A stretch of 64,000 nt of DNA from Candidatus Woesebacteria bacterium RIFCSPLOWO2_01_FULL_39_61. GTDB taxonomy: Bacteria; Patescibacteriota; Microgenomatia; UBA8517. The stretch lies in assembly GCA_001793155.1 (NCBI GenBank), contig MGHI01000040.1, positions 3,209 through 67,208 of the forward strand, given 5' to 3'. Shown in pieces: positions 1-38,692 of this stretch (positions are counted from its first letter, which is position 1; each line of letters starts with the position of its first letter). A program made the translations under genes and the position numbers. The notes below the pieces were generated by a model that saw only the letters and a program-made list of their open reading frames with translations, was not told the origin of the DNA and searched no databases.

Positions 1-146
1 GCCAAAATCCCTTGAGCGAAACGAACAACCGCACGATTGACACATATATGTAAATATCATATATTAGTTTCTAAAATATCGCAACTGAGTAAAAATAGAT
101 CATTTAGCCTACGTCGAAGCGGGGATTGCATCCAGTAGTCCACCTT

Positions 147-1922
147 TCAAGGCGAGGAGGATGTCATTAACTTCTGTCTTGTTATCTCTGTTGTATCAAC
201 TAGGGCGTCACCTTCAAGATCGAAAGAATAAATATTATCAAGCACAACCACTTCTACTTTACTTGTATAATTTTTTGTTGCCTCACCATCTGTATAGGCT
301 GAAACAACCTCTTGCCAATCCGGGGTATAAACAAGGCTCCATGGATAATCGATACCATACTGAAAATAAACTATAACCGGAAATCCAAACATCAAAGAGT
401 GGTGTAGTATCTCAGAATTTGAAGGTTGAAAGTAAAATAAAATTGGCGTGTTCCCGTGCTTGTCGAAAACATCAGGTATTGAGTTTCTAATATTCTCGGT
501 TAAGCGCACTCCCCTAACATCCGAAAGGTGGTTCAAGTATTTAAAGCTTCCCAGTGCATGAATTAATATTGCGAGAATAAAAAAAAGGTATAGGGGAAAT
601 TTGTTCTTAGCATTTGCCACAAAAGCGCTGAGAAGTAAAGTTATTCCAACGGAGGACACTATTAGATATCTTTCTTGTGTGGCCGTTATCACAGAGGGAT
701 TCCTCAGCCAGAAAATAAAGTACCCAAAACCTATAATCGAAAGTATAACTATTGATCTAAAAAAAGAGCTTTTGTTCTTTAAAGTACTTAATAGGACAAC
801 CATTATAAGAATCAGCAAATAACCGCCTGCAAAGAAAGATAATAATTCCGATGTTGTAATAGGGTTTATTTGAAAGTAGGTAAAATAAACACCAGTTGCC
901 AATGTCCAGGCAAAACCGATCCAATATGCCAGATTGAAATATTTTTGCTTTAAATTCGAATATCCGGCTTTAAATAACCGTAAGATGAATCCCAAAATAA
1001 AAATAGCGGGTGTGACTACAAATAATAATGTTTTAATAATGCTTAAAGACTCCCACGACCTTAATACTAATCTGTTAGGGAAAACCATTTGTCCCAGTTG
1101 AGCTATCGGAAACAAAAAGAATTTAAACTCGTATTTTCCGTTTTCGGGTTTGAAGTCCGAAAAATATTTAAAAATACTGTTTATAAAACCGCCGCTTAAT
1201 CTGTTTTCAGTACTGCCAATACCGATTGATCCGCCAATTTTCCCAAAAAGGAAAATCGACAGTACAATTAATATGTATATGGAAATCCGGATAAAAGAGT
1301 ATTTAGTTTCAACCTTCTTAAACCTAAAAAGAAGATAAAGTACTTCAATAAATATTCCTAAAAGAGGTAAAAATGCCATTCTGATAGGCTGAACCACTAT
1401 AGTCAGACCAAAAAGTATTACTGATATAAAAATTAGTTTTAAGGAATCCTTTTCTTTTGATTTAAAAACGCTCAACAGGTACAGGTTAAATAGCGTAATT
1501 GCTATATATGAAGGCATATTAAAAACCCAACCTGTGGTTTCCAAGCCGGTTGAAGTAACTAAAAAAAAGATTGATGCAAGATAAGCAAGTATCTTATCTT
1601 TGAATAAAAATAATACTAGGGGTAAAAAGGAAAAAGCAGCGATTATTCTCATTATAAAAGAGGCGACAAAATAAGGAGTTGGATTTAATCCGTAAAAGTG
1701 ATAAATAATCGCGAATACACTATCTTGCGGGCCGTAATCTGTGAAGAAATAGTTGAAGTAATTGAACTCCCTACCTTCTCCAACAATGTGTTGGAATCTG
1801 TAAAGTGTAAGCAGCGAATCCCCGTCAAAATGAATATTAAAGCTGGGATAAAAAATAATTAATCCAAAGAATATTATTAATAGAGTTACTATTAATTGTT
1901 TATTACTTCTAACAAGTTCCAT
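147..1922 (-). CDS. Polytopic membrane protein, GT-C fold glycosyltransferase-like (PMT/ArnT/GT39-like)
   Basis: 591-aa ORF with >10 predicted hydrophobic helices. Overall architecture resembles phospholipid-carrier-dependent glycosyltransferases. Family assignment is by resemblance only. Confidence 0.5.
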   Translation of the reverse strand: MELVRSNKQLIVTLLIIFFGLIIFYPSFNIHFDGDSLLTLYRFQHIVGEGREFNYFNYFFTDYGPQDSVFAIIYHFYGLNPTPYFVASFIMRIIAAFSFLPLVLFLFKDKILAYLASIFFLVTSTGLETTGWVFNMPSYIAITLFNLYLLSVFKSKEKDSLKLIFISVILFGLTIVVQPIRMAFLPLLGIFIEVLYLLFRFKKVETKYSFIRISIYILIVLSIFLFGKIGGSIGIGSTENRLSGGFINSIFKYFSDFKPENGKYEFKFFLFPIAQLGQMVFPNRLVLRSWESLSIIKTLLFVVTPAIFILGFILRLFKAGYSNLKQKYFNLAYWIGFAWTLATGVYFTYFQINPITTSELLSFFAGGYLLILIMVVLLSTLKNKSSFFRSIVILSIIGFGYFIFWLRNPSVITATQERYLIVSSVGITLLLSAFVANAKNKFPLYLFFILAILIHALGSFKYLNHLSDVRGVRLTENIRNSIPDVFDKHGNTPILFYFQPSNSEILHHSLMFGFPVIVYFQYGIDYPWSLVYTPDWQEVVSAYTDGEATKNYTSKVEVVVLDNIYSFDLEGDALVDTTEITRQKLMTSSSP

Positions 1923-3467: not shown

Positions 3468-3474
3468 ATGAAGT

Positions 3475-6181: not shown

Positions 6182-6394
6182 ATAGTACTGCAGTTGAGGT
6201 TTTAAACTAGGTCAATCCGATGGTTTATAGAAAATTTCAAGAAAACCCCGATCTAAACGGGCATGAATTGAACTTTTATATGTCATCCTCTTTTAAGGAA
6301 ATCTACTTTCCAATTCGGGAGGATATCATTGGCTTTTGGCTTCAAATTTGATATTATAGGTTACTATTAATACAGGCAGAGTGAAGCCTCCCCA

Positions 6395-6539: not shown

Positions 6540-7706
6540 ATGGAGCCAAAACTATTACATCCAATCAGCTTTAATCCGCGAATCCCCTACCCGGTTACTA
6601 TTCTATTGGCAGGCTTTGCTACCTTCATAATTTCCTTTATCTATTTTTTAAATTTGGACAGCGACTTTGTCTATAAAATTCAAAGACAAGCGGTTGTTCA
6701 AAAAATTGAAAATTACGAATATTCACTTCGGGAAAAAGCCGCAACACAAGCTGTCCATACCGAAGCCGTATCTTACCAACTTCCGTCTGACTTTGCGGTT
6801 TTGCCCTCAGCAAAGTGGGTACCGCAGACGTTTAATAACTGCGGTCCCGCAACTACTTCCATGGTTTTACAGTATTTCGGATACAGCGTTAGCCAGGAAG
6901 ATACAAAATCTGCTTTGAGAACAAATCCTGACGACAAAAACGTTTTTACTTTCGAAATTTCAGATTACTTAAGAAAAAATTACAATATAGAATCCAAACT
7001 TTTATATAACGGAAGTGCTCAAACTCTAAAAACCTTAATCGCAAACGGAATCTATGTCATGGTTGAGGATTGGCTTCATCCGAATGAGGATATCGGACAC
7101 GTAACGATTCTCAGAGGGTTCGACGATAAAAGGGGGATGTTTATCGCAGACGACTCCTACCTGGGTACAAATATTAAATATCCTTATGAAGAATTCGATA
7201 AGACGCAGTGGAAACCTTTTAACCGGGAATATTTACCTGTCTATAAACCTGAACAAAAAGCTCTCGTTGAAACCATAGTCGGAAATGACTGGGATGAAAA
7301 AACTATGTTTGAGAATGCAGTTGAGAAGAATTTAGCGGACACAAAAAAAGATTCCGAGGACATGTATGCCTGGTTTAATGTAGGAACCAGTTATTTTGCA
7401 CTCGGAAAATTCCAGGAAGCAAAAAGTGCATTCGAAAAATCAAAAGAAATCGGCTGGCCGAAAAGAATGCTTTGGTATCAAATTCAACCTGTAGAAACTT
7501 ATATTGCTTTAAGCGAGTCTGATAAAGCCATTCAACTGGCCAATGTCGGGTTAATCGGTAACGATAGTTTCTCAGAACTACATCTTGAGAAGGCCAAAGC
7601 CTATAAAGGACTTGGAGACATGGGTAAAGCCCGTGAAGAGACTGAAAAAGCTCTTTATTACCATCCCAATTATCCGGATGCGAAAGAATTTCTAAACAGT
7701 CTTTGA
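6540..7706 (+). CDS. Membrane-anchored C39-like peptidase domain protein with C-terminal TPR repeats
   Basis: 388-aa ORF. N-terminal TM helix. NNCGPATTSMVLQYFGY matches the catalytic-Cys motif of the Peptidase_C39_2 family. C-terminus has TPR-like helices (AWFNVGTSYFALGKFQEA..., LEKAKAYKGLGDMGKA). Confidence 0.6.
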   Translation: MEPKLLHPISFNPRIPYPVTILLAGFATFIISFIYFLNLDSDFVYKIQRQAVVQKIENYEYSLREKAATQAVHTEAVSYQLPSDFAVLPSAKWVPQTFNNCGPATTSMVLQYFGYSVSQEDTKSALRTNPDDKNVFTFEISDYLRKNYNIESKLLYNGSAQTLKTLIANGIYVMVEDWLHPNEDIGHVTILRGFDDKRGMFIADDSYLGTNIKYPYEEFDKTQWKPFNREYLPVYKPEQKALVETIVGNDWDEKTMFENAVEKNLADTKKDSEDMYAWFNVGTSYFALGKFQEAKSAFEKSKEIGWPKRMLWYQIQPVETYIALSESDKAIQLANVGLIGNDSFSELHLEKAKAYKGLGDMGKAREETEKALYYHPNYPDAKEFLNSL

Positions 7707-7813
7707 TGACATCCTCCGCGGCTTTAAGCCCGCGGTTTCCTCTAAAGGAGGATGACATATGAGCGTTCTATTCATCCCCGACAAATGTCGGAGTTTTCTT
7801 GAATGCTCTTATA
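7705..7813. repeat. MITE-like palindromic repeat, copy A
   Basis: tgacatcctcc-[GCGGCTTTAAGCCCGCGG]-tttcctctaaaggaggatgacatatgagcgttctattcatcccc-[GACAAATGTCGG]-agttttcttgaatgctcttata. Aligns base-for-base with copy B, with compensatory changes in the stems. It supplies the TGA stop of the upstream gene. Confidence 0.6.
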
Positions 7814-7846
7814 ATTGCCACCGAAGTTGGTTAAAATGGTTCTTCA

Positions 7847-18989: not shown

Positions 18990-20555
18990 TTACTTATGTT
19001 TTTTTAAAACTACCGCGGTCTCATCCTGGTATACTTCTTCCCACCCGTCTTTTTCTAGCTGTTTTACAAGTTTAAAGTCTTTCTTTTTATAACCAAAGTA
19101 TGTTAAGAAGTTTCCAACTTTTTCAAAATAAACATCGAGTGGCGTATCGTCTTTCGGTTTGGTCCACAAAACTACCTGAATATTATATTCGTCAAATACT
19201 TTCTTATAGTCCAATTCCCCACCGAGAATTTTGGTGTAATCGTCAAAAGCCGAATTTGTTTCCCCGTCGGGAGCATTCCAACGCCAACTCGGCATTCTTC
19301 CATCGACAAATACCTTCTTTTCAGGTATTTTCCAAATCAAATAACCACCCCAACCGTACTCGGTAAAAATTTGTCCGGGAGGAGTATTCTCTTTAAGATA
19401 GTAAACCGCACTTTTGGGATAGTAGTTCTCTTCTGTCAAAGAAATTCCTTCGGCGTAATCAAAAATAAGCTGGAATAAAACAATTCCAAGCACCCCCAGC
19501 CAAGCCCATCTATATGCCTTAAAAATTCTCTCTAAGGCAGATTTCTTATTCTTAAGCTGATTGTGAAATGTCCAAATAGCTTGGGTTACAATCGGTAAAC
19601 CTGCAATTACCAAAAGAGGTAAATGTCTTCTTGAACTAACGGCCTGAACCAAAAAGAAGAAAAACAAAAAAACTTCCTCTGTTTTCAGAAATTTTCTTTG
19701 CTTCCAGACAAAAACCGAAGAAAAAGTACCCAAAACAATCATCGGTAAATTAAGCATGGTAATGGCCGGCATCCACTCGTTAATTGCCCAGCGAAGCTTA
19801 GCATCAACGATTGAAGACCAGACTTCCCTCCAGACACCAAAACCATAGGGATTTACTAGGGTAATAAGAAGGCTGGCAATAAAAATAAAATATGAATATA
19901 AGTTGACTTTCTTTTCTCTTAAGGATCTGGTAATCAATACCAGGAAAAATGACATTAATCCGGATGCAAATCCTCCGTGTGTGTTAGCCCAGACCAGAAA
20001 TATCAGTGGCAAAAAGAGTCTGTATTTTTTCCAAAGTATGTCGTCAAAGATCATCTTGAGGAGTAGTGCGAGAAATACCCAAGTTAAAATCTGGACACGC
20101 ACTCCAAAAAAGACAAAAAGTAAAGAGATAGATAGCAAAAATACAAAATTGGAAAAGTCTCCGAAATCGCCGCCCAAGGACTTCCGATAAATATTTGTCA
20201 AATCTTTCTTGACACTTGATTTTAAAGTTGAATGGGAAATCTTTATCGCCAAAAAAACAAAAAGAGAGTAGATAAGCGCAAGACCTATCTTACCGACAAT
20301 TGGGAAAAGATACGAAAGCGTCAGGCTTTGCAACCAGGCATGATCAACATATGGGAAGGAAGGCATCGTATAACTAAAGGGGTCCTTATATTGTATGCCC
20401 GTCTTGAGAATTAGTTCGCCCGATTTCAACCTCCAGCCAAAATCAGGATCAAGAAAGACAATCGCTCTCGTCCAAAATAAGATTAAAGCCAGCATATAAA
20501 ATATCGCTCTGCCGTACTTCTTTGCAAAGGCCAAAAAATAATTTAAGTGGTACAT
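18990..20555 (-). CDS. Membrane protein with N-terminal polytopic domain and C-terminal soluble domain
   Basis: 521 aa. About 10 TM helices, then a ~170-aa hydrophilic C-terminal domain. Confidence 0.45.
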   Translation of the reverse strand: MYHLNYFLAFAKKYGRAIFYMLALILFWTRAIVFLDPDFGWRLKSGELILKTGIQYKDPFSYTMPSFPYVDHAWLQSLTLSYLFPIVGKIGLALIYSLFVFLAIKISHSTLKSSVKKDLTNIYRKSLGGDFGDFSNFVFLLSISLLFVFFGVRVQILTWVFLALLLKMIFDDILWKKYRLFLPLIFLVWANTHGGFASGLMSFFLVLITRSLREKKVNLYSYFIFIASLLITLVNPYGFGVWREVWSSIVDAKLRWAINEWMPAITMLNLPMIVLGTFSSVFVWKQRKFLKTEEVFLFFFFLVQAVSSRRHLPLLVIAGLPIVTQAIWTFHNQLKNKKSALERIFKAYRWAWLGVLGIVLFQLIFDYAEGISLTEENYYPKSAVYYLKENTPPGQIFTEYGWGGYLIWKIPEKKVFVDGRMPSWRWNAPDGETNSAFDDYTKILGGELDYKKVFDEYNIQVVLWTKPKDDTPLDVYFEKVGNFLTYFGYKKKDFKLVKQLEKDGWEEVYQDETAVVLKKHK

Positions 20556-20556
20556 T

Positions 20557-21777
20557 TTATGCTTCTAGAAAAATATGACTTTTGCCTACTATCAAAAACA
20601 ACACCCCCAGTGTCAGTAGAGGGAAAGATAAATACGCCTGAAATCCTGTATAGGCAAGAATTGGTAGCGCATAGATAACAAACGCCAGAAAGTAGGCAAA
20701 TTTAAACCTCTTTTTCCTACCCCTAAATATCTTATTAAATATAATGTAGAAAGGAATTAAAAGGAGAACATAGTCAAAACTTAGGAAATGAACAGAAAAT
20801 ACTATCGAAAAGAGAATCGTCGAAACGAACAATGTCTCGTAGGTTAATTTACGAGACCGTATCGCAAAAAATATCAGCACCACAAAATATAAAAGAGTAT
20901 TTAGAAAGACCACAAATCTGCCGGATAGATTAGAAAATAAAAAACGGGTATTCGCATAGAAAGATCCCATATCTTGGAATCTGCTTCCATAGTTTGAATT
21001 CTCCGTTGTAAATAAAAACGCAGGATAGCGAAGAAACCACAAGGGATAGGACATGACTGAACTTACTAAGATTAAGAAGGCAAACATTGGAAAAAAACCG
21101 ATCAAAAATTGCTTTTTTTCTCTAACTAAAAAAAAGATAAAAGGTATCGCCGTAAGATATTGTGCCTTAATTATCAAAAGAGACGAAAATACACCGGCAA
21201 GAACATACTTTTTATCTTTTATGCTATTAAAGATAATCAAAAAGATGGTTGTAATTAGCACTGAAAGTTGTCCCATACATAGAGCTTGCAGTGCTGGAAT
21301 AAATACGATCACCAATAAAAATAAGTATTTAGACTTTGCGGAAATGTTTTCAAACACCCTTGTGAGTAGATAGTAAAAAAAGATAAGTAATAAAAAATTT
21401 CCTATGGAAAATATCGTGTAAGCAGTCTCCAGGGAAAGAAAGGTTAAAGGAAGATAGATAAGAAGCACAGCAGGAATTCCTCGGAAAGGCAAGACCCAGT
21501 CACCTATTTTCGGATCTATTACTGACGTTTGAAAAAAATATTGTGTTGGCAAATCATAAAGCAAGCTCCCCTTTCCTGCGGCAAGTATTTCAGCTCCAAC
21601 AAAATAACTGATAAAGTCTGCCGATTTTGAAAAATAACTCCTATTTACCAGAGTTGCCATAAATGTAGCTAAAAATATCGAAAGAAAAGAAGCGTGAACA
21701 ACAATTTTTTTTATAGTTTGTGATTTTTTAGTTTTCTTCATGTGAGCGGCTCCCAGGAAAGAGAAAAAACAGACCAA
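20557..21777 (-). CDS. Polytopic membrane protein, DUF2029/GT87-like (paralog group B)
   Basis: 406 aa. The true start is probably MKKTKKS at 21741, which trims the overlap with the upstream gene. Confidence 0.45.
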   Translation of the reverse strand: MVCFFSFLGAAHMKKTKKSQTIKKIVVHASFLSIFLATFMATLVNRSYFSKSADFISYFVGAEILAAGKGSLLYDLPTQYFFQTSVIDPKIGDWVLPFRGIPAVLLIYLPLTFLSLETAYTIFSIGNFLLLIFFYYLLTRVFENISAKSKYLFLLVIVFIPALQALCMGQLSVLITTIFLIIFNSIKDKKYVLAGVFSSLLIIKAQYLTAIPFIFFLVREKKQFLIGFFPMFAFLILVSSVMSYPLWFLRYPAFLFTTENSNYGSRFQDMGSFYANTRFLFSNLSGRFVVFLNTLLYFVVLIFFAIRSRKLTYETLFVSTILFSIVFSVHFLSFDYVLLLIPFYIIFNKIFRGRKKRFKFAYFLAFVIYALPILAYTGFQAYLSFPLLTLGVLFLIVGKSHIFLEA

Positions 21778-22909
21778 CCATCAAAAATGCGAATTGTAAA
21801 AAATAGGTTGTATTCAAAAAAATTATTGACGGTAGAAAAAATAAAAAAAAGACAATGATTTGGGAAACGTACTTTCTTTTCTCTTTTTTTAAAAAAACCA
21901 GATTTAAGATTATAAAAATCGGAATAAGAGTCACTGTTAAGTCATGGGCCAAAGTGTGCATTGAAAAAAATATTGAAAAAAGAACCGCTGAAATAAAGGA
22001 CTTTTCTCTATCCACTTCTTTATATCTATACCGAAAAATGACCAAAGCTAGTAAATAAAAGATTAAATTAGCTGCAATCAAGAATTCTCGCGGCATCTTA
22101 CTAATCATGTTTTGGGCTAATAAAAAACCATAAAATGTAAAAGACAAAGCCGCATTACTGCCAAGTTTCGGAATCTCGCTGCTTAAAACGAACTCGGGAT
22201 ACTTTTGTAAAGTTTGCCAGCCGGATATATACAAACTCACAGATAATATAAGAAGCATGGAAATAAAAAACCCCTTAAGATATGACTTTTTATCTTCAGA
22301 AAGGATAAACAAAAAGGGGAAAAGGGTTAGATATTGTATTTTCAGCAGAAAGAAAGAGGTAAAAAAACCAAGTAAAAACCATTTTTTCTTTTTTAATAAA
22401 AAATAAAGCGAAGCATATAAAAGTAATAAGATAACTGAAGTCTGCCCCATTCTTAGGGAAAGCAAAACAGGTAAAAAGACAATTGGAATTAAGCCGAGAA
22501 AAGGCTTACCTCTAACCAAATCCCTAAATTGAATCGATAACCAAACCGAGGTCAGCACAAGAATGATGTAGTTGGTGTATACAAAATACTTGTATGCCAT
22601 CAGTGGGTGCAAAAACGAAAACGGTAAAAAGATAATCACCGAAGCTGGAATTAACCTAAAACCGTTTCTATTCCTTACGTCCGTCCTTTCAATATACTTC
22701 TCCTGAATCTGATAGTTGAAACCTATATCATAAAGCTTCTCGCCTTTTCCGTCTTTTACGATTTTAGCTGCAACAAAATGATTAAGAAAATCACTTTCCA
22801 GCAACAAATTCTCCGTTGGTTTGAACAAGATAATTATGGGAATGCTGACTATAAAGAAATATAAGACCAATAGTACCAAATTAACGTTTTTATTTTTGAT
22901 AGTCTTCAT
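21728..22909 (-). CDS. Polytopic membrane protein, DUF2029/GT87-like (paralog group B)
   Basis: 393 aa. Shares the conserved N-terminal motif FLNHFVAAKIVKDGKGEKLYD with the other group B paralogs. Confidence 0.45.
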   Translation of the reverse strand: MKTIKNKNVNLVLLVLYFFIVSIPIIILFKPTENLLLESDFLNHFVAAKIVKDGKGEKLYDIGFNYQIQEKYIERTDVRNRNGFRLIPASVIIFLPFSFLHPLMAYKYFVYTNYIILVLTSVWLSIQFRDLVRGKPFLGLIPIVFLPVLLSLRMGQTSVILLLLYASLYFLLKKKKWFLLGFFTSFFLLKIQYLTLFPFLFILSEDKKSYLKGFFISMLLILSVSLYISGWQTLQKYPEFVLSSEIPKLGSNAALSFTFYGFLLAQNMISKMPREFLIAANLIFYLLALVIFRYRYKEVDREKSFISAVLFSIFFSMHTLAHDLTVTLIPIFIILNLVFLKKEKRKYVSQIIVFFLFFLPSIIFLNTTYFLQFAFLMVGLFFLFPGSRSHEEN

Positions 22910-22957
22910 TAAGGTTTTTAGTATCTATATTACGGATATCGGAATTATATAGGGCAT

Positions 22958-24190
22958 TTAAATGAAGTCTGATAAAAAGGTAATAAACAAATAAAGATTT
23001 GTATGGGCAACAACTAAAATAACGATTTTAAAGGCCTTCGAAAGGATTCTGTATTTTCTCCTGTAGCCAATTAAAAGAATCAAAAAAAGTAAAGGGAGAA
23101 AATCCAACGAATACCTATATCCAAACTGACGATATCCTACTCCGTAATAAAGAAGTATCGGCAATGCGATTATTAAAGCTGTGACCCACATAAGTTTCAA
23201 CAACCGATTTTTATACTTCAGTAAGAAAAGGTACAGAAAGTAAGGCGAGGTAAAAAAGATACTTACTCCCCAGGGATTGGCTTTTATATAAGGGTATGTT
23301 AATACGTGAGAAAGGCCATCCTTGAAAACCGGCGTGGGTGAACTTAACAAGAAGTAATATAAATTTCCAGGGAGATGAATAAGGTTAAAAATTCCGTATT
23401 CCCGAGCTTTAAGGGCCGAACCTTTAATTAACTGAAAATTATAACCCAGTTCAAAAATGTTTCTGAACCTAAGCTGGTTATAAAGAAATGCCAAAAAGAT
23501 AGCCAGGATAAAAGGTGAAATAATCTTAGTTAAATTCAAAAGTCTCGAGCGAAAGGTTGTATGCGTATTAAAATATATATCGGCGACAAAAAGTACTATT
23601 ATTAAGCTTGCAGGAGTTCTGGTCAGAAAAAGTAATCCGCTAATTACCCCTAAAACCCAATGGCGTTTTTTTGACAGAAACTCGTAAAGTCCAAGAAATA
23701 GTAAAAAGGTAGCCACAACTTGAGAGTAATACCAACTCCACGGCCAAAGGGCAACGCCCAGAAAAACTGAACTAAAACAAAAAGCAAAAGCCAAAAACAA
23801 CGAGTCATTTGAAGAGTATTTAATTTTCCTGCAAATCCGATAGATAAGATAAAAAACTCCAGCCACCAAAAAAAATTGTAGATACCCCTGCAGGAAAAAT
23901 TTTCCAAAAAGGCTAAATATATAAACGAAAGGTATTAAAATAATGGCCGGAAAAGGCTGAAGCGGCCAATAAAACTTACCCTCAAAGAGGGCGGTATCAT
24001 AAACTGCAACTTTTGTTTGTGTAAAATAAAGTTTACCTTGCAAAAAAGAGTACGCCAAATTAGAAAATTGTTGGTCTCCGGAGATAAAAAAGTTTAAGAG
24101 TCCGCAAATTAAAAAGAAGAAGATCATGCTCATAATCACAACCCTCTTCCCGAGTGGATAATTTTGGATTGGTTTTTTGAAATTTGCCAT
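22958..24190 (-). CDS. Polytopic membrane protein, GT-C-like (paralog group C)
   Basis: 410 aa. Shares FLQGKLYF...YDTALFEGKFYWPLQPFPAIILIPFV with 26461..27828, 27904..29106 and 29131..30351. Confidence 0.45.
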   Translation of the reverse strand: MANFKKPIQNYPLGKRVVIMSMIFFFLICGLLNFFISGDQQFSNLAYSFLQGKLYFTQTKVAVYDTALFEGKFYWPLQPFPAIILIPFVYIFSLFGKFFLQGYLQFFLVAGVFYLIYRICRKIKYSSNDSLFLAFAFCFSSVFLGVALWPWSWYYSQVVATFLLFLGLYEFLSKKRHWVLGVISGLLFLTRTPASLIIVLFVADIYFNTHTTFRSRLLNLTKIISPFILAIFLAFLYNQLRFRNIFELGYNFQLIKGSALKAREYGIFNLIHLPGNLYYFLLSSPTPVFKDGLSHVLTYPYIKANPWGVSIFFTSPYFLYLFLLKYKNRLLKLMWVTALIIALPILLYYGVGYRQFGYRYSLDFLPLLFLILLIGYRRKYRILSKAFKIVILVVAHTNLYLFITFLSDFI

Positions 24191-24196
24191 GTGTGA

Positions 24197-25708
24197 TCAT
24201 TTACCAGGATTTGCTACATATAAGTTTACCTCTTCGTGATCGTTAGAGGTCCCGGCAACGTTTTTAAGTCCAAATTTATTAGCGAAATTTGTCAAATACT
24301 CTTCTTTATACCAGCCGTCGAATTCGTTTTTGGAAACAATTAAAAACAAGGTGTTGTCTAAGGTTTCTTTATTTAATTTAGAGTGTCTTTTTATATCTTT
24401 TTCGGCAAGTATATTAAATCGCCGGGAGAGAAAAAAAGGCTGGAAATAGCGATCTGGCGACAGTTTATCAAAAGTAAAGTAAAGCTGGGGATAGTAAGTT
24501 ACAACCATCAAATATTCCTTGGAGTCCAGAAGGTCTTTGTGATTCGTTATAAAATTTTGAACCCGGGTAAGATCTGAGTCTCTATCTTCGCTAAAAAGAA
24601 AGTGGCGGTAACTACCCACCTCCGATATAAAAAGCAACAGTAAAACGGATGCTAGTAAGTGCGACATCCTGGTCTCTGGAATTATTTTCCTCCCCTGAAG
24701 AGCAGAATTTCCTCTGAAAGATAAAGCTATTATCAAGACCATAGCTATCGTGACAATCAAAGAGAATTGTACGAAATGGTGAAAATAAAATAACCCCCCT
24801 ACAAAAGTCGATGAGATCGAGGCGAAAAAGATTGCAAATATCAAAAACTTATACTCTATTAACTTATTATTTAGTAGACTGAAATAAAGGAGGGGAATAA
24901 CCAAGATTATGGATAAAAACAATCTCGTTTCAGAAGAGATGTTTAAAACTAGCTGTCTTAAATAATCGGTTTTTATCAAGCGAGAGTATCCCGAGTTAAA
25001 AACTAGTAAATTATCAATTAAGTAGTCCAGCCTGCCCCCCAAAACAACGTAAAATAAAATTACCGAGAGGAAAGATACTATAGACCCGACAAAAAATTTT
25101 AAAAATATAGCCAATTTCTCACCCTTACTTAAAAACCAGACCAAGGGAACAATTCCCCAAAAAATAGTCGTCGGTCTGGTAAGTATTGCCAAAGAGTAAA
25201 GAATTCCAGCAAAAAAGACTTTTTTTCTTTCTACTAACAAAAGCGATGAAAGTATAAAGAAAAAAGCCACGGTTTCGGAGTATACGCCTCCTGTAAATGT
25301 CCCTATCGAGTAACTTTTGATAAGAAGGGTAATAAAAAAAGAAAGAAATATTCCCCACTTACCTGATAGTAAGTTTTGCACCTTAAACCAACTGGTTGCA
25401 ATCTTAATTGAAAAGAAGGACAAAAAAGTATCCAGGATGGTACTTGTCACAATTAATGCAAGTTTGTAGTTATTTTTAAAAAAGAGATATAAAACCGAGA
25501 AGAAAAAGTAAAGTACAGGGCCTTTATTATCGGCAAAATCTACATACATGTCTTTCCCTTGGGCAACGCCACGACCGATATAATAAAAGGAAAAAAAGTC
25601 AGGATCAATATTTCCCCAAAGAAAGCTTAAGGATACCAAAAAACTAGTTATAATAATTACCAAGAAAAGGTGCTTTTCCTTAATTTTTAAATTTCGATTA
25701 ACCTGCAT
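24197..25708 (-). CDS. Polytopic membrane protein with C-terminal soluble domain, GT-C-like
   Basis: 503 aa. N-terminal ~11 TM helices, then a ~150-aa soluble domain. Confidence 0.45.
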   Translation of the reverse strand: MQVNRNLKIKEKHLFLVIIITSFLVSLSFLWGNIDPDFFSFYYIGRGVAQGKDMYVDFADNKGPVLYFFFSVLYLFFKNNYKLALIVTSTILDTFLSFFSIKIATSWFKVQNLLSGKWGIFLSFFITLLIKSYSIGTFTGGVYSETVAFFFILSSLLLVERKKVFFAGILYSLAILTRPTTIFWGIVPLVWFLSKGEKLAIFLKFFVGSIVSFLSVILFYVVLGGRLDYLIDNLLVFNSGYSRLIKTDYLRQLVLNISSETRLFLSIILVIPLLYFSLLNNKLIEYKFLIFAIFFASISSTFVGGLFYFHHFVQFSLIVTIAMVLIIALSFRGNSALQGRKIIPETRMSHLLASVLLLLFISEVGSYRHFLFSEDRDSDLTRVQNFITNHKDLLDSKEYLMVVTYYPQLYFTFDKLSPDRYFQPFFLSRRFNILAEKDIKRHSKLNKETLDNTLFLIVSKNEFDGWYKEEYLTNFANKFGLKNVAGTSNDHEEVNLYVANPGK

Positions 25709-25727
25709 GGTAAATGCTCCCGGAAAC

Positions 25728-26453
25728 TTAAAAGGGGGGAAATAAACTTAAAAGCGTAGATAATCCATACTTAACACTTCTTGTAAAACTAATAGAAGAC
25801 GCTTCATTAAAATAACGAACCGGAACGGGAGTTTCTCCAACCCGAAAACCACGCCTGATTGCCGAAATTAGTATTTGTTGATCAAATACAAAGTCGTCAG
25901 AAAATTTGTGAAACGGCACCCTTTTAAGCACCTTTTGGTGAAAGGCGCGAAAACCGGTATGATATTCTGATAAATTCTGACCAAGGATGATATTTTCCAC
26001 AATAGTTAATAGCCTATTTCCCAAATATTTATAGAGGGGCATCCCGCCGGCCAACGACTCTTTTCTGGTTCTAATTCTTGAACCCAACATTAGGTCAAAA
26101 CGTCCTTCAATAATCGGTTTTACCAATTCTTCAACCAAACTGCTGTCGTATTGATAATCCGGATGAATCATCACAACAATATCGGCTCCCTCGTTTAAAG
26201 CCAACGTATAACAGCTTTTTTGATTTCCGCCATAACCCCTGTTCTGGGGGTGAACAAAGGTCTTAATACGAAGGCGTTTGGCAATTTCTACGGTTTTATC
26301 GTGACTTCCGTCATCAACCAGTATTATTTTATTAACAATTTTTTTGGGTATATCCTCGTAAGTCTTTTTTAAAGTTTTTTCCGCATTGTAAGCCGGCATC
26401 ACTACTACTATTTTCTCAAAATTGATTCTTTTTCTCTTAGATGTGCTTTTCAT
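25728..26453 (-). CDS. GT2-family polyprenol-phosphate sugar transferase (DPM1/GtrB/ArnC-like)
   Basis: 241-aa ORF: VVMPAYNAEKTLKKTYEDIP...ILVDDGSHDKT...HPDYQYD..., a typical GT-A DxD-fold Dol-P-Man/Und-P-Glc synthase pattern. Confidence 0.8.
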   Translation of the reverse strand: MKSTSKRKRINFEKIVVVMPAYNAEKTLKKTYEDIPKKIVNKIILVDDGSHDKTVEIAKRLRIKTFVHPQNRGYGGNQKSCYTLALNEGADIVVMIHPDYQYDSSLVEELVKPIIEGRFDLMLGSRIRTRKESLAGGMPLYKYLGNRLLTIVENIILGQNLSEYHTGFRAFHQKVLKRVPFHKFSDDFVFDQQILISAIRRGFRVGETPVPVRYFNEASSISFTRSVKYGLSTLLSLFPPF

Positions 26454-26460
26454 AAATTTA

Positions 26461-27828
26461 TTAATTCATAAAGTAGGCTGTTATAAAAAAATATAAATTC
26501 GTCAGCGACGAAACAAAAATTAACAACTTAAACCCATCGGAAAGTTTACCGAACGTATTCTTATAATTTTTAATAAGTAGGAAAAAAAGAAGCGGCAGAA
26601 AATCAAGAGCATAACGATATCCGAACTGGCGAGAACCTATCGCGTAATATAGAAATATTGAAAACGCGATTACGGATATTGTTAGCATGAGAATTTTGGA
26701 CAACTTGTCTTTATACGAAAGTAAAAATAAGTAGCCAAAGATTGGCGACGTAACAAAAATACTCATCCCCCACGGGTCTGCCTTTACAAAAGGGAAAGTC
26801 AAAACGTGAGAAATTTCATCTTTGAAAACTGGAAGCGGCGTTGCTAAGAGAAAATAATATAAGTTTCCTGGAATGTGATAAAGACTTAGCACTCCATAGT
26901 CGCGAGCCTTGGTTGAACCCGCCAAATTAATGGCGTTAGTATAACCAAATTCAAAAACGTTCTGAAACCGTATCCAGTTATAGGCGAAAAAGAGTATAAA
27001 AGCTAGGATAACTGGGGTACATAATAAAAAAACCTTTTTCGTTTTCTCAATCCAGCCCTCTCCCTTATTTGTAAGAATGCTCATTAAAGGAAACACAAGA
27101 ATTCCTACAGATGACGCCCTGGTTAATAAAAGCAGTCCCACAAATAAACCCAACAAAACTTCTGGCACCTTGTTCAACGAGTTATGACGTCCTCCCCACC
27201 TTGAAAGGCGGGGTATCCCTAAGGAGGACGACATATCGGCGTTCAATTCATCCCCGCCCTGAAGGGTGGGGTTTTCTTGAATGCCGTTATAAATAAGAAG
27301 GAATATAAGTAGTGTTACTAGTGTATGGGCAATAAAACCTGGCCACAAAGCACTACCCAAGAATACCGTTGAGAAGCAAAAAGCAAAAGCTAAAAACAAA
27401 GAATCCTCATGTTCGTATTTAACTTTTCTTGCAACCTTATAGCAAAGATAAAAAACTAAAATCACCAATAACGGCTGAATATAGCCGTGATATATACGAA
27501 CCCCCAACAAATGAGAAACCAGCACAAAGGGTAATAAAAATACAGCCGGAAAAGGGCCGTGAGGAGAATAGTAGTTTCCTCTATCGGGGGTTGTGTCTAA
27601 CCAACTTCCATCAGGCTGGGTTAAAAAATAAGTCTTTCCGGACCAAAAAGATTCAGCCAAACGGGTGAAGTATTCACCCTTGAGAGTAAAATTAAATGCG
27701 ACAACGACTGAAAAAAACAAGATAATAGAAACCTTCAAAATTCTGGTCATTTTTTCAAATAATAATAACAAAAATAATCTCTGATAAAAAATTTCCCCGG
27801 AGACACCCCCACAACACCCTTCCTTCAT
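26461..27828 (-). CDS. Polytopic membrane protein, GT-C-like (paralog group C) carrying an in-frame ~40-aa insertion derived from a MITE-like repeat
   Basis: 455 aa. Relative to paralog 22958..24190 it contains the extra segment ...NPTLQGGDELNADMSSSLGIPRLSRWGGRHNSLNKVPEV... This segment is encoded exactly by repeat copy B (27183..27295). Confidence 0.5.
   Translation of the reverse strand: MKEGCCGGVSGEIFYQRLFLLLLFEKMTRILKVSIILFFSVVVAFNFTLKGEYFTRLAESFWSGKTYFLTQPDGSWLDTTPDRGNYYSPHGPFPAVFLLPFVLVSHLLGVRIYHGYIQPLLVILVFYLCYKVARKVKYEHEDSLFLAFAFCFSTVFLGSALWPGFIAHTLVTLLIFLLIYNGIQENPTLQGGDELNADMSSSLGIPRLSRWGGRHNSLNKVPEVLLGLFVGLLLLTRASSVGILVFPLMSILTNKGEGWIEKTKKVFLLCTPVILAFILFFAYNWIRFQNVFEFGYTNAINLAGSTKARDYGVLSLYHIPGNLYYFLLATPLPVFKDEISHVLTFPFVKADPWGMSIFVTSPIFGYLFLLSYKDKLSKILMLTISVIAFSIFLYYAIGSRQFGYRYALDFLPLLFFLLIKNYKNTFGKLSDGFKLLIFVSSLTNLYFFITAYFMN
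27183..27295. repeat. MITE-like palindromic repeat, copy B (inside CDS 26461..27828, in frame)
   Basis: tgacgtcctcc-[CCACCTTGAAAGGCGGGG]-tatccctaaggaggacgacatatcggcgttcaattcatcccc-[GCCCTGAAGGGTGGGG]-ttttcttgaatgccgttata. About 80% identical to copy A outside the stems, and the stems are compensatory. Confidence 0.6.
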
Positions 27829-27829
27829 T

Positions 27830-27905
27830 ATCGGGCGGGGCCTTAAGAGGGAGGCATAAATATTTATCTACCGAGTCAGTGTCGAAAGTTTTCTTGAATG
27901 CTTCT
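27830..27905. repeat. Degenerate partial MITE-like repeat, copy D
   Basis: ...ttaagagggaggcataaatatttatctaccgagtcagtgtcgaaagttttcttgaatgcttctata shares the 3' portion (taaRgRggagg...gttttcttgaatgcYNNtata) with copies A and B. Confidence 0.3.
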
Positions 27906-29106
27906 ATAAAAATACACTAAGAAAAAGGTAAAAATTAAAAAGCGAACTAAGCAATATCACAAATTTTATTTTTATTGATAGTTGTCGAGGCTTAATCGAG
28001 TATAAAAGGAGAAGAAATAAAAAGGGCAAAACATCGATCATGTATCTCGGTCCGACCTGTGTCCATCCTGGTGAATAATACGTAAAGAGAATTGTAACTA
28101 TTATCAAAATTGTCAAAAGCGATAGCCTAACTATCCTTTTTTTAAAATTAGCTCTAAAGACACTAAGGAATATTGGAGAAACTACAAAGAAACTTGTCCC
28201 GGGCTCAACTACTTTCAGAAAGGGTAATTTAGGGATTAATTTCGATATTAGAATGTTTCTATTTTCTACAAAACTAACTTCAAAGGTTTTAATAAAATAG
28301 TAGTAGAAGTTCATTGGAATATTACTAAAGGCAAATAAACTATTTCCAGTTGGAAAACTTGTAACTTTCGTATAGCCGCTGTCTAAAAAATTTCCGAACC
28401 GTAAGTAGTTATAAATCATAAGTACAAAAACCATCAATACATACGGGGTAGAAAGGCTTGCCAACTTAGCAAATTTTTCTCTTAACCTATATTTAGGGTT
28501 AAGAAAAATTTCAAATATGAAAAACATTATCGTCAAACCGGTAATAAATCTGGAAGCAAGGGCTAAAGCAGAAAAAAATCCAATAACAAAATACCTCTTC
28601 TTCCCTAAAAATTCATAAATTGCTAATAGGACAAAAAAAACACCCACAGATTGAGACAAATAAGAGCTTATTGGAATAACAGATATACTCTGATAGACGG
28701 AAGCCAGACAAAAAGCATAAGCAAGGTATAAAGAGTCCTTAGTATTATATTTGAAAGATTTGGATATGCGAAAACAAATGAAAAGAGCACCCAAGAAAAC
28801 AAAAACATGAAGAAGGCTTTGATAAAAAGGAGCTTTAAATAAGTCAGAAATAAAAACAAAAGGAATAAGTAAAATCGCAGGCGTCGGACCCTGATGAAGA
28901 TAGTATTTCCCGTCGTAGAGTACGTAGTCTTCCTGAATCGATGTGTGTACTAAATATAATCTTTTATTGATAAATGACCTGGCCAATTCGGTGTAACCTG
29001 AAAAGTCTCCGATAACGTTAATATATAAATTAAATATTAATATAAGAGAGGTAAAAATAATTAGAAAAATCAATATCAATTTTGATGAATAATGTCTATG
29101 CTCCAT
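27904..29106 (-). CDS. Polytopic membrane protein, GT-C-like (paralog group C)
   Basis: 400 aa. Motif FINKRLYLVHTSIQEDYVLYDGKYYLHQGPTPAILLIPFVFI. Confidence 0.45.
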   Translation of the reverse strand: MEHRHYSSKLILIFLIIFTSLILIFNLYINVIGDFSGYTELARSFINKRLYLVHTSIQEDYVLYDGKYYLHQGPTPAILLIPFVFISDLFKAPFYQSLLHVFVFLGALFICFRISKSFKYNTKDSLYLAYAFCLASVYQSISVIPISSYLSQSVGVFFVLLAIYEFLGKKRYFVIGFFSALALASRFITGLTIMFFIFEIFLNPKYRLREKFAKLASLSTPYVLMVFVLMIYNYLRFGNFLDSGYTKVTSFPTGNSLFAFSNIPMNFYYYFIKTFEVSFVENRNILISKLIPKLPFLKVVEPGTSFFVVSPIFLSVFRANFKKRIVRLSLLTILIIVTILFTYYSPGWTQVGPRYMIDVLPFLFLLLLYSIKPRQLSIKIKFVILLSSLFNFYLFLSVFL

Positions 29107-29130
29107 ATTATCAGTATTAAAATGTTTCTC

Positions 29131-30351
29131 TTAAACAAACATTTGTGCATTTCCAATCATACGCGCTATAAATAAATACAAATTAAACAAGGAGCTAAAA
29201 ATTATTAATGTCTTTGCAAATGTGGAAACATTTTGTTTTCTAAATGAAAATAAAAGCATAATAAATGCAAAGGGTAATAAATCAAGCAGATAACGAGGCC
29301 CCAACTGATAGTCTTCCCCTGAATAATAAAAAAGTAGTAAAGCCAAAAGTATGATTATCGAAGCTAGCAAAGATGATTTCACAAGTTTATTTTTTATCTT
29401 TACCTTTAAGAGATAAAAAAATACCGGAGATACTACAAAAAAGCTGGTACTGGGATAGGCAACAAGGTGGGGTATATTAAGTGTTATACCACCAAGTACT
29501 ACTTGCTTATTATTGAGAATATAAACCTGTAAGCCTTTTAAAAAATAGGTATAAAAATTATTGCGAAGATACCTGATTCCGAAAAGCGGGTCTCCTACCG
29601 GAAGAGTTGGATTATTTATTAAATAACCAGTCTCAAAAAAACTCTCGAATCTGACAAAATTATAAATTAGCAAAAGCACACCCGCAAATCCGATTGGAAG
29701 TAATAGATAAAACAAATCCCTAATTTTATTTTTCAGTGAAGATTTACTATATAAGATATCGAAGACAAAAAAGGCTAAACCTAAAATCGTAAATGCCCTA
29801 GTTGCCAAAACCAAAGATAATAAAACACCTGTAAGAAAATGTTTTCTGTAAAAAAGATATATATAGATTGCCAAAAGCATAAAAAAGACGCTTATTTCTT
29901 GGCCAAAGAACCAGCTAACTGAAAAAAAGGCTATAAACTGGAAAACCGAAGCAAAACAAAATGCGTAAGCGAGGTATCTAGAATTTTCGCCCCCGAATTT
30001 AAAATACCGCGCGATTTTATAACAAAGTATAAAAATTCCCAAGCTTATAAAAAACTGCAAATATCCTTGCTTGAAGTTAAGTCCAACGATATCAAAGACG
30101 AATACGAAAGGCATCAAGATAACTGCAGGCAGAGGTCCTTGATGCCAATAGTGCTTTGAATCATATAAAACCAAATCCATCTCCTTATAGCCATCTGGAA
30201 AATACAATTTGCCTTCCAAAAAGGATTGCGAAAGAGCTAAATACTGATCGTTGATGTTTATTTTCAAATTTAAAGCGAAGACTAAACTAAAAAAAACGAC
30301 CAAAAAAATATCTACAATTATTTCAGGAAAGTGAATTTTAGCTAAGCGCAT
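29131..30351 (-). CDS. Polytopic membrane protein, GT-C-like (paralog group C)
   Basis: 406 aa. Motif FLEGKLYFPDGYKEMDLVLYDSKHYWHQGPLPAVILMPFVFV. Confidence 0.45.
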   Translation of the reverse strand: MRLAKIHFPEIIVDIFLVVFFSLVFALNLKININDQYLALSQSFLEGKLYFPDGYKEMDLVLYDSKHYWHQGPLPAVILMPFVFVFDIVGLNFKQGYLQFFISLGIFILCYKIARYFKFGGENSRYLAYAFCFASVFQFIAFFSVSWFFGQEISVFFMLLAIYIYLFYRKHFLTGVLLSLVLATRAFTILGLAFFVFDILYSKSSLKNKIRDLFYLLLPIGFAGVLLLIYNFVRFESFFETGYLINNPTLPVGDPLFGIRYLRNNFYTYFLKGLQVYILNNKQVVLGGITLNIPHLVAYPSTSFFVVSPVFFYLLKVKIKNKLVKSSLLASIIILLALLLFYYSGEDYQLGPRYLLDLLPFAFIMLLFSFRKQNVSTFAKTLIIFSSLFNLYLFIARMIGNAQMFV

Positions 30352-36436: not shown

Positions 36437-36495
36437 CCTCTGCAGGCTACACCGATTTTCAAGATCGGCCCGTTCATCCACTCCGGCACGTCTCC
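36407..36495 (-). tRNA. tRNA-Ser (anticodon UGA)
   Basis: Manual fold: acceptor GGAGACG/CGTCTCC, D-arm CCGGAGTGGATGAACGG, anticodon loop CTTGAAA, long variable arm, T-arm AGAGGTTCGAATCCTCT, discriminator G. Confidence 0.8.
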
Positions 36496-36499
36496 CCGG

Positions 36500-36586
36500 C
36501 GGAGGAGGTGGGATTCGAACCCACGCGAGCTTTTAAGGCTCACGCGCTCTCCAAGCGCGCGGAATGAACCACTATCCGACTCCTCC
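36500..36586 (-). tRNA. tRNA-Ser (anticodon GGA)
   Basis: Manual fold: acceptor GGAGGAG/CTCCTCC, anticodon stem CGCGC/GCGCG with loop TTGGAGA, long variable arm GAGCCTTAAAAGCTC, T-arm GTGGGTTCGAATCCCAC. Confidence 0.75.
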
Positions 36587-36598
36587 GAATATAGCCAA

Positions 36599-37183
36599 TT
36601 ATACCAAACTCTCCTGTATTCCCGAATCTAAAATCTTTTCTGCTTGATCAAGAAATTTTTTCTCTCCAGAAAAGCTAAGCTTTTTTCTTGCCTTCTCAAA
36701 TTCCAACCATTCAACTTTTTCTGTCTCAAATCCAGGACCTTGATGCATATCTTTTATCCATCTCATAAGATAAAAAGTTACAAATTTCAATTTCTTGCCA
36801 CCTTCTTTTGATGTGTAGAAATATCTCTCCGTACCGATTTTTTCTATAATTTTTGCTTCCACACCGCCCTCTTCTCTTACTTCTCTTCGCGCAGCGTTTT
36901 GAAGATCAGCTTCATTTGCTTTTTTCTCTCCCGAGGCCAATGGTCCCGGTTTTTGCCCGTCGTCACAGTCGTCAATCCATCCCTTGGTAAACCTCCAAAC
37001 GTTCCCAGGATAACCCTTGGTGGGACTTGATTTTGCCACTAACCAATATATCCTAACTTTCCTACCTTCCCTTTCTTTTACTTTTTTAAAGACAATTCCT
37101 CCCGCTGAAAATTCCCTGACTATTCCTGGAGCTTGGTTTATATCTAGGGGTTCTTTTTTTTGGCCTTTCTTTCCTTTTTCCAC
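36599..37183 (-). CDS. NUDIX hydrolase
   Basis: 194 aa. Nudix box GEKKANEADLQNAARREVREEGGVEAKI (GX5EX7REVXEEXGV). Confidence 0.7.
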   Translation of the reverse strand: MEKGKKGQKKEPLDINQAPGIVREFSAGGIVFKKVKEREGRKVRIYWLVAKSSPTKGYPGNVWRFTKGWIDDCDDGQKPGPLASGEKKANEADLQNAARREVREEGGVEAKIIEKIGTERYFYTSKEGGKKLKFVTFYLMRWIKDMHQGPGFETEKVEWLEFEKARKKLSFSGEKKFLDQAEKILDSGIQESLV

Positions 37184-37593: not shown

Positions 37594-37602
37594 AACTTTA
37601 CT

Positions 37603-37866: not shown

Positions 37867-37934
37867 AGCGTCGCGTAATAAATCAAAGATTTAAACGCGA
37901 CAGCCACGTTTAAATTGCTTGGCAATTTATTACG

Positions 37935-38025
37935 TGGCGGTGGGGACAGGATTTGAACCTGCGCGAGGGGATTAACCCTCAAAGGTTTAGCAAACCTTCG
38001 CCTTAGACCACTCGGCCACCCCACC
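37935..38025 (-). tRNA. tRNA-Ser (anticodon GCU), CCA encoded
   Basis: Manual fold: acceptor GGTGGGG/CCCCACC, D-arm GCCGAGTGGTCTAAGGC, anticodon loop TTGCTAA, long variable arm, T-arm GCAGGTTCAAATCCTGT, 3' GCCA. Confidence 0.8.
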
Positions 38026-38659: not shown

Positions 38660-38692
38660 AAATCTTCCCTATTTTTGATAAAATATAACCAC

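Follow-up and report, generated by a model that had tools for sequence, protein, structure and literature searches.

A gene for a membrane glycosyltransferase-like protein of Candidatus Woesebacteria bacterium RIFCSPLOWO2_01_FULL_39_61 carries an in-frame copy of a short mobile palindromic element, which we describe here within a window of 64,000 nucleotides (nt) of contig MGHI01000040.1 (assembly GCA_001793155.1); positions and strands refer to this window unless stated otherwise. The gene, which encodes a protein of 429 amino acids (aa) with a GT-C fold, extends over 26461..27750 on the − strand, as judged from gene callers, orthologs, an AlphaFold2 (AF2) model and Foldseek. It contains at 27184..27288 (− strand) the inserted element, designated copy B, which contributes a net 105 nt or 35 codons and was delimited by BLAST, by comparison with the orthologous locus L059 and by a score of 115 bits to R1, a covariance model built from small copies of the element only. 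The in-frame, tolerated insertion of a mobile palindromic repeat into this GT-C-like gene is supported by the data. Copy B itself is probably a non-autonomous miniature of an insertion sequence (IS) of the IS200/IS605 family, similar to palindrome-associated transposable elements (PATEs).

The mechanical open reading frame (ORF) at this position spans 26461-27828 on the − strand and comprises 455 aa. M27 (27750) is the start chosen by gene callers and shared by all orthologs; the real coding sequence therefore probably begins at this residue and has 429 aa, and the 455-aa ORF is probably over-extended. An earlier note on this DNA, made from the sequence alone, had located the repeat at 27183..27295 inside the coding sequence. 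The location held, and the borders were refined by one to three bases to 27184-27292, a segment with a GC content of 53% versus 37% in the surrounding 2 kb. Alignment of the protein with its three paralogs (22958-24190, 27904-29106 and 29131-30351) revealed a gap of 35 columns at the repeat position. The same 35-residue gap was found in the five closest of 257 relatives returned by a protein search, all of which lack these residues. The insert therefore measures 35 residues, as the paralog, homolog and L059 alignments agree, rather than the approximately 40 extra residues reported earlier. The nearest homolog, P0002 (80% identity in the alignment, 74% by BLASTP), is likewise devoid of the insert, and its gene cluster (L059) is syntenic, with GT-C/GT87 paralogs and a GT2 gene in the same order. 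On the gene strand, the filled site reads CTT ATT TAT / AAC GGC ... CGT CAT / AAC TCG (slashes denote junctions) and the empty site in L059 reads CTC ATT TAT / GGC TTT. Indeed, when the 105 nt are omitted, the window aligns with L059 without gaps over 398 nt, the syntenic ortholog thus lacking exactly 35 codons.

On the − strand, which is the sense strand of the gene and the proposed top strand of the transposon, copy B reads AACGGCATTCAAG...GGAGGACGTCAT, and its precise excision would leave the flanks ...CTTATTTAT/AACTCGTTG... joined. The reading frame is kept through the insert (...NGIQENPTLQGGDELNADMSSSLGIPRLSRWGGRH...) and no stop codon is introduced, in line with the previous claim; ORF translation and the comparison of filled and empty sites agree on this point. 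The insert corresponds to about residues 157-191 of the 429-aa form, and its translation would yield peptides such as GGDELNADMSSSLGIPR. Since the inserted 105 nt possess one open frame, the gene stays intact. The insert-bearing gene was found in 67 assembly blocks, and all population variants within the 90% cluster of the gene keep both the insert and the open frame; no empty allele occurs among the cluster members, each of which carries the insert. To judge from the sequence, the insert is presumably translated and the host protein presumably continues to function. The alternative that the segment represents an ancestral loop of the paralog lineage, whose nucleotide similarity to other repeats arose by chance, is refuted for all practical purposes: the segment is absent from the paralogs, from the syntenic ortholog and from 58 further homologs, and copy B matches positions 7706-7814 with 77% identity over 111 nt (E 8e-16), in addition to its score with the family model. 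Further BLAST matches of copy B in the window are located at 6236-6293 (− strand) and, as a fragment, at 140-172 (− strand).

The AF2 model of the host protein, based on 59 homologs, has a mean predicted local distance difference test (pLDDT) score of 92. Values below 50 occur exclusively in the insert (model residues 180-192), within a broader stretch of lowered confidence (approximately 160 to 196) that sits between the helices 137-157 and 197-210. This is the only low-confidence loop of the otherwise confident GT-C fold, and the model places the 35 residues there, in line with the loop position anticipated by the earlier note. The top Foldseek hits in the PDB are AglB, PglB, ArnT, AftB, STT3 and PMT (probability 0.99-1, TM about 0.45), and AF2 and Foldseek together place the host protein among proteins with a GT-C membrane fold. 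A Pfam search with the host protein gave zero hits; in UniRef it is named RgtA/B/C/D-like. The corresponding loop is short and rich in Lys/Arg in the paralogs and, following the positive-inside rule, probably faces the cytoplasm. According to the model, the insert would add 35 hydrophilic residues to this loop between two membrane helices.

The host gene is embedded in a region (18990-30351) that comprises approximately nine genes for membrane glycosyltransferase-like paralogs (GT-C, GT87) and one GT2 gene, all on the − strand, and this arrangement is kept in L059. In an 833-aa protein from SRR3989344 (P0248), which corresponds approximately to 26461-29106, the upstream GT-C paralog is fused in frame to the host gene (join ...LLSSLF/IFYQRLFLL...), and the intergenic region with a decayed copy of the element is deleted.

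Two further copies in the window are intergenic. Copy A (7706..7814; top strand −; 109 nt including ATAA; 110 bits to the covariance model) starts at the last base of the stop codon of ORF 6540-7706, and copy C (6225..6329; top strand +; 105 nt including TTAT; 70 bits) is more decayed. Both are missing from contig L060 of a relative, which encodes a TPR/C39 protein with 86% identity. For copy A, the empty site reads GTCTTTG/ATAATTACC and the filled site GTCTTTG/ATGAC...CTCTT/ATAATTGCC; for copy C, the sequences are GGATTAT/TGACTTTTGGC and GGTTTAT/AGAAA...ATATCAT/TGGCTTTTGGC, respectively. In these two filled/empty pairs and in the pair formed by copy B and L059, the element lies directly 3' of (A/T)TTAT: the three empty sites read ...TTTAT/, ...ATTAT/ and ...ATTAT/, and the TTAT columns are nearly invariant in an alignment of 57 copies. 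The net insert equals the element length minus 4, and the opposite flank is unconstrained. Taken together, the three pairs indicate that the final four conserved bases (ATAA, i.e. TTAT on the other strand) belong to the target. For copy B, this target and putative left cleavage tetranucleotide TTAT is located at 27289..27292 on the − strand (ATAA on the + strand), outside the insert, and is present in the empty sites. A search for additional empty sites, in which joined flanks were compared with all loci, gave only the three known ones.

The earlier note had addressed the repeat as resembling a miniature inverted-repeat transposable element (MITE). That it is a mobile palindromic element was borne out, since copies also occur between genes with sharp boundaries and the family comprises at least 153 distinct copies. 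Being a MITE in the strict sense was not. A classical MITE would be moved as double-stranded DNA by a DDE transposase through cut-and-paste, duplicating a 2-bp target AT, and AT is indeed found at both junctions of the three filled sites and once in each empty site; moreover, rve-type (DDE) transposase genes are present in these genomes (L183, L186). The sole possible repeat between the flanks of the 57 copies is this ambiguous AT, which is indistinguishable from the element ends; repeats of 3 nt or more were not detected. However, terminal inverted repeats are absent, as the 5' end ATGACATCCTCC is unrelated to TTATAACAGCAT, the reverse complement of the 3' end. Likewise, conservation of the target is one-sided, with a nearly invariant ATAA versus a weak A/T preference on the other side, and both ends match an IS200/IS605 element that inserts without duplication (see below). 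A MITE in this sense is thus very unlikely. The lack of terminal inverted repeats and of a clear target duplication, together with insertion 3' of TTAT, led us to classify the element as IS200/IS605-type instead.

The folded structure was derived by RNAalifold from 53 copies and by model-based realignment of 57 copies. It consists of five helices in two end domains, which abut with a linker of 2 nt. Helix P1 encloses the hairpins P2 and P3 in a three-way junction, while P5 encloses hairpin P4 across a conserved internal loop. Pairing is observed in 94% of the cells, and 21 of 39 pairs exhibit changes on both sides. In 500 shuffles, the observed values were never reached, save once (1/500) on one of the five measures, and pairing fell to 36-45% in a control in which the partners were slid by 1-3 columns. 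Between copies A and B, compensatory changes convert A-U to G-C in P1 and C-G to G-C in P5. Compensatory substitutions had been reported previously for these two copies and hold more generally across the 57, but the two stem-loops originally envisaged have become five helices. Copy B adopts this fold with z-scores ranging from −4.3 to −5.6, whichever strand is taken and whether it is treated as RNA or DNA. In this copy, the right-end domain (27184..27234, − strand) is formed by P1 (27184-27193/27225-27234) and hairpin P2 (27194-27201/27206-27213); helix P3, present in most copies, is reduced. The left-end domain (27237..27286, − strand) consists of P5 (27237-27246/27277-27286) around hairpin P4 (27252-27259/27264-27271).

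Covariation of the helices corroborates the previous proposal that the structure is under selection, and recognition of single-stranded DNA explains it as well as RNA does. Wobble pairs provided no signal for a transcribed strand (23 G.U versus 36 A.C), and the constraint could therefore act on single-stranded DNA as readily as on RNA. This bears on the possibility that the repeat is a functional structured RNA, such as a terminator-plus-promoter cassette, an mRNA-stability element or a small ribozyme, which was spread by recombination and resides in genes by accident. In agreement with such a role, helix sequences vary while junction nucleotides are conserved, hairpin P4 is followed by UUUUCUU in the + orientation, and the end TGTTATAA(T) represents an extended −10 box, with a co-oriented ORF 7-15 nt downstream in several copies. 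In addition, a permissive scan around copy A yielded HgcC on the other strand as the best sub-threshold Rfam match (18.4 bits versus a gathering score of 50, E 0.024). At the gathering threshold, however, Rfam 15 detected only tmRNA and tRNAs in the whole window and no family for the element. Moreover, copies occur in both orientations within ORFs and in all intergenic contexts, their presence or absence is precise and tied to TTAT, no conserved promoter is found upstream of the element, and the wobble pairs are uninformative as described. We consider a structured RNA of this kind unlikely, even if individual copies may exert secondary regulatory effects. Three more specific assignments were rejected: membership in HgcC, as the score is below gathering and the resemblance is a lead only; a hammerhead or K-turn reading of the conserved junctions, whose core motifs do not fit when inspected by eye; and an integron attC site, for which the R'/R'' consensus and a cassette array are missing.

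Of note, the target ATAA(T) overlaps −10-like boxes at the 3' ends of copies (7806-7846 in the window; L005, L006, L024, L028, L030 and L044), and the element end GCTGTT rebuilds an extended −10 box (TGTTATAAT). The co-oriented ORFs located 7-15 nt downstream of several copies suggest that these genes are leaderless and that their promoters withstood the insertion.

On the TTAT strand, the left part of the element has the layout TTAT / AACAGCATTCAAG-AANA-(P4 hairpin)-GATGAA-TTGAACGCTG-AT-, followed on the right by ATGTCATCCT-(P3)-G-ANA-(P2 hairpin)-AGGATGTCAT /. Thus, the element has a subterminal hairpin at each end (P4 and P2), lacks terminal inverted repeats and inserts 3' of a specific tetranucleotide without duplication, features that characterize IS200/IS605 elements. 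A distance of 10 nt separates the foot of the right hairpin from the end of the element, and 17 nt lie between the left cleavage site and the foot of its hairpin. In IS608, the left cleavage site TTAC is matched by the guide AAAG and the right cleavage site TCAA by the guide GAAT, the guides lying just 5' of the hairpin feet (PMC5934647). Position −4 of the cleavage site pairs with the second guide base, −3 with the first and −1 with the fourth, whereas the third is non-canonical (PMC5934647). Across the 57 copies, the 4 nt preceding the hairpin feet are AANA (left) and GANA (right), and the cleavage sites would be TTAT and TCAT. When tested at the sequence level, every Watson-Crick position of the IS608 scheme fits the element: the T/C difference at position −3 of the cleavage sites is mirrored by A/G in the guides, and the variable guide base corresponds to the position which in IS608 is A in both guides and faces an A in the cleavage site without Watson-Crick pairing. 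In copy B, the putative left guide is the complement of 27272-27275, with the conserved GATGAA following the P4 hairpin on the − strand, and the putative right guide is the complement of 27214-27217. The right cleavage site TCAT would be the complement of 27184-27187, 10 nt past the hairpin foot.

The left-end domain also matches in layout the left end of an IS that bears tnpA. In the metagenome loci, a single Y1 transposase gene was found (L183, 3290-3709 of that locus). A small copy lies 330 nt away, and its TTAT-bearing, proposed top strand is the strand on which the gene is located. A search with the encoded protein returned 910 homologs, and PF01797 was present in all of the best 120 of these 910. 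One of the homologs, P0348, carries the annotation IS200/IS605 transposase and is assigned to Candidatus Woesebacteria. Its gene occurs in two genomic contexts, which fixed the boundaries of the IS: it has 553 bp and reads ...TTTAT / TCTTCCTTTGCAGAAAAC(CCCAGTTTTTTAAAACTGGG)GATGAATGG ... tnpA ... GATG(CTCCGGCTTTTAAGCCGGAG)AGATTGTTCAC /. Joining of its outer flanks restores an intact 3-dehydroquinate synthase (aroB) frame, and hence the IS inserts precisely after TTTAT without duplication. It shares with the small element the TTAT target, a 17-nt spacer ending in AGAAAA and the sequence GATGAAT after the hairpin, and its guides follow the same code (AAAA with TTAT, GATG with TCAC). Model R1 detected the left end of this IS with model positions 64-97 (21.2 bits, E 0.0075) and the right end with positions 8-46 (14.4 bits, E 0.21). 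The two matches lie opposite to the tnpA strand, flank this gene and are colinear with the model, so that the layout of the small element is what would remain if the interior of such an IS were lost. A related autonomous IS with a Y1 transposase (PF01797) and matching ends, of which the right one is weak, thus exists. The L183 gene itself is part of a cluster (2353-4300) in which an ORF for an rve-type (DDE) transposase overlaps the 3' end of the IS200-like tnpA, alongside the small element and a tRNA-like sequence. Two loci considered as autonomous copies were discarded: L020 5098-6104 consists of two half copies around a Nudix gene, L046 1700-1895 is a 196-nt compound variant, and neither includes a transposase.

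We envisage that the left-end and right-end domains of an IS200/IS605 element were joined head to tail with loss of the transposase gene, as in PATEs. With a Y1 (HUH) transposase provided in trans, a single strand of the element would be cut out and pasted directly 3' of TTAT on single-stranded DNA without target duplication; copy B would have landed in this manner after ATT-TAT in the sense strand of the glycosyltransferase-like gene. Mobilisation by a Y1 transposase on single-stranded DNA is suggested by the ends and target of the element. Several observations weigh against this interpretation. The AT shared by both junctions makes a 2-bp target duplication formally possible. The IS608 pairing scheme would apply to the element by analogy, and its long covarying helices P1 and P5 have no described counterpart in IS608. 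The match of R1 to the right end of the P0348 IS is weak, this IS differs by the right cleavage site TCAC and a right linker of 11 rather than 10 nt, and beyond the hairpin-flanking motifs its similarity to the element is modest. Finally, Y1 transposases are absent from the window and, except for L183, from approximately 1.36 Mb of element-bearing loci; a search of the first 562 kb of loci with an IS200 TnpA sequence and an HUH...Y motif also found no transposase. As the window lacks tnpA, a transposase acting in this genome is inferred.

To define the family, an exact-pattern scan of one genome per species provided 57 DNA stretches, to which a metagenome scan added at least 120 further stretches. 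Where given, the lineage labels of the 57 stretches are Woesebacteria, Microgenomates or Patescibacteria, with several copies per genome; at least 153 distinct copies are present in Woesebacteria/Microgenomates, and none were found in the viral contigs scanned. Copies are sharply bounded (ATGACATCCTCC ... GCTGTTATAA) and have unrelated flanks. The modal length is 112 nt, copies A and B measure 109 nt, and lengths of 112, 109 and 115 nt (net 108, 105 and 111) are the most frequent. In 113 of 153 distinct copies (74%), the net length is a multiple of three. About one fifth (33/153) reside in frames that are open for at least 30 codons on either side, 21 with the gene on the TTAT strand and 12 in the other orientation; in ORFs over 300 aa, the ratio is 17 versus 5. 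A strict rule that the gene is always on the TTAT strand, suggested by 14 of 14 cases in the first 57 copies, was withdrawn in view of this larger set. When the gene is on the TTAT strand, the net length is divisible by three in 20 of 21 copies and all are free of stop codons; the family consensus has one open frame per strand. Hosts identified by Pfam include arginyl-tRNA synthetase, a class I aminoacyl-tRNA synthetase, two Mur ligases, TsaD, a P-type ATPase, ComM/Mg-chelatase, Fic, Wzy-like, GT4, GT87, ALG10-like and PMT-type transferases. Hence, like Rickettsia palindromic elements (RPEs), the element is inserted in frame and with an open frame into unrelated genes. With about 20% of the copies in frame within real genes, the comparison with RPEs drawn previously proved apt.

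These data also speak to an intron- or intein-like removal of the insert at the RNA or protein level, which would leave the mature protein unchanged. P1, P5 and the invariant central linker would bring the junctions close together. However, divisibility by three and the lack of stop codons would be unnecessary if the insert were spliced, no known ribozyme or intron core was detected, and the insert has only 35 residues and no intein motifs. Removal is therefore highly improbable. The fraction of copies with lengths in multiples of three, the open frame on each strand and the frequency of TTAT in AT-rich coding sequence raise the question whether this family of IS200/IS605-type miniatures was shaped by selection to be compatible with coding, rather than being accidentally tolerated in genes. 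We regard this as possible, if somewhat doubtful.

Metagenome-assembled genomes titled 'uncultured Gammaproteobacteria bacterium' carry the element as well, with several copies each (L004, L009, L011, L014, L017, L023, L024, L030, L032, L034, L039, L050, L051 and L058); since it is the same element as in Woesebacteria, this label looks doubtful. Contigs often end in or beside the element (many metagenome loci, as well as P0244 and P0247; P0244 stops at ...NGIQENPALQGG), which indicates that the repeat fragments metagenome assemblies. In Woesebacteria GW2011_GWA1_39_21, another GC-rich hairpin repeat (AAACTACCACGGACTAAAGTCCGTGG...GATGAATTCAATA) lies beside copies of the element (L020 3865-3915 and 5895-5990, and the flank of L022), so that more than one family of hairpin repeats exists in these genomes.

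Apart from copies A to C, the window contains remnants of the element. Partial copy D (100..172, + strand), recognized by BLAST and motif, is a fragment of the right-end domain with ATGACATCCTCC and P2 on the − strand; A and B are oriented one way, C and D the opposite way. Copy D provides the last eight codons (...LMTSSSP) and the TGA stop codon of the 591-aa ORF 147-1922 (− strand), an example of the element remodelling a C-terminus. A decayed copy is located between two of the glycosyltransferase paralogs (27811..27909, − strand); only its end TTCTTGAATGCTTCTATAA is clear, and it is supported by this motif and a weak score of 15.5 bits (E 0.28). Its TTATAG end holds the stop codon of the upstream paralog ORF 27904-29106, and the 78 nt upstream of M27, i.e. 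the spurious 5' extension of the 455-aa ORF, overlap with it. A 129-nt insertion relative to contig L060 is present at 6379-6507 (+ strand). This insertion scores 30.9 bits with R1 and is similar in its 3' half (GGTTCATTCATC-(hairpin)-GAATTCTGAAT...TCTTAA) to the left-end domain of the main element; it ends in TTAA rather than ATAA, and no other copy was found among the sequences examined. This insertion may represent a second, related element family. Unrelated to the element, the gene downstream of the one for the Big_5/C39 protein contains a coding tandem repeat with a period of 24-36 nt that is rich in Pro/Thr/Glu codons (10555-10718; family D1), and five tRNA genes and a tmRNA gene (156 bits) are clustered within 4.4 kb at 36407-40777.

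In-frame selfish DNA in protein genes is best known from Rickettsia, and Woesebacteria, members of the candidate phyla radiation (CPR), provide a second lineage. Genomes of about 1 Mb that are densely coding leave such an element little room except inside genes. Its ends bear the hallmarks of 'peel and paste' transposition of a single strand, which offers a concrete and testable mechanism with TTAT as defined target, and its insertions could equip proteins, among them tRNA synthetases, cell-wall ligases and TsaD, with new surface loops. If the family is indeed coding-compatible, the miniature would persist in small, gene-dense CPR genomes as surface loops even of essential genes. It would then be a second, independent system of the RPE type and the first with inferable transposition chemistry, suggesting a testable origin for RPEs. 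The element also breaks assemblies, extends ORFs, supplies stop codons and can rebuild −10 promoter boxes, effects for which CPR annotation would gain from a model of it. In the literature searched, we found no description of such elements in Patescibacteria, and no Rfam model covers them. Miniatures of IS200/IS605 elements and in-frame palindromic DNA of the RPE type are each already known; the novelty appears to lie in the joint occurrence of both features in CPR bacteria, in the preference for lengths divisible by three and in the presence of insertions within essential genes.

Among known systems, HgcC (RF00062) resembles the element by GC-rich hairpins in an AT-rich genome and a weak alignment that includes GAUGA...GAAC and GGAGGAxGUCA; the score far below gathering marks the element as a non-member. 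Correia, ERIC, BOX and RUP repeats are similar in size (approximately 100-150 bp); they are likewise dispersed in many copies, occasionally within genes, give folded transcripts and can have side effects as promoters or terminators. Correia elements and other bacterial MITEs possess terminal inverted repeats and target duplications, which is TA in the case of Correia, whereas the element described here has neither terminal inverted repeats nor a demonstrable duplication. REP sequences are short hairpin repeats that are likewise thought to be handled on single-stranded DNA by a Y1 HUH enzyme, RAYT. REPs are single hairpins of 20-40 nt with a 5' GTAG, essentially extragenic and clustered around a single RAYT gene; in contrast, the element comprises two domains, uses TTAT/TCAT sites and frequently lies within genes. 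With IS200/IS605 elements such as IS608 and with PATEs it shares insertion 3' of a fixed tetranucleotide without duplication, subterminal hairpins and the lack of terminal inverted repeats, and with IS608 also the complementarity between the 4 nt preceding the hairpin feet and the cleavage site (PMC5934647). It differs from both by its size of about 100-113 nt with abutting end domains and by the long covarying helices P1 and P5 around the hairpins. Unlike PATEs, it shows a strong preference for net lengths divisible by three, and it is often and tolerably located inside coding sequences, a habit not reported in the PATE literature searched. RPEs, too, are short palindromic repeats found between genes and in frame within unrelated protein-coding genes, where they add a conserved peptide in fold-compatible loops (PMC10969869). 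They belong to Alphaproteobacteria rather than CPR/Microgenomates, and the likeness described here is one of habit. While this review gives no transposition mechanism for RPEs (PMC10969869), the insertion site and a plausible mechanism of the Woesebacteria element can be read from its ends.

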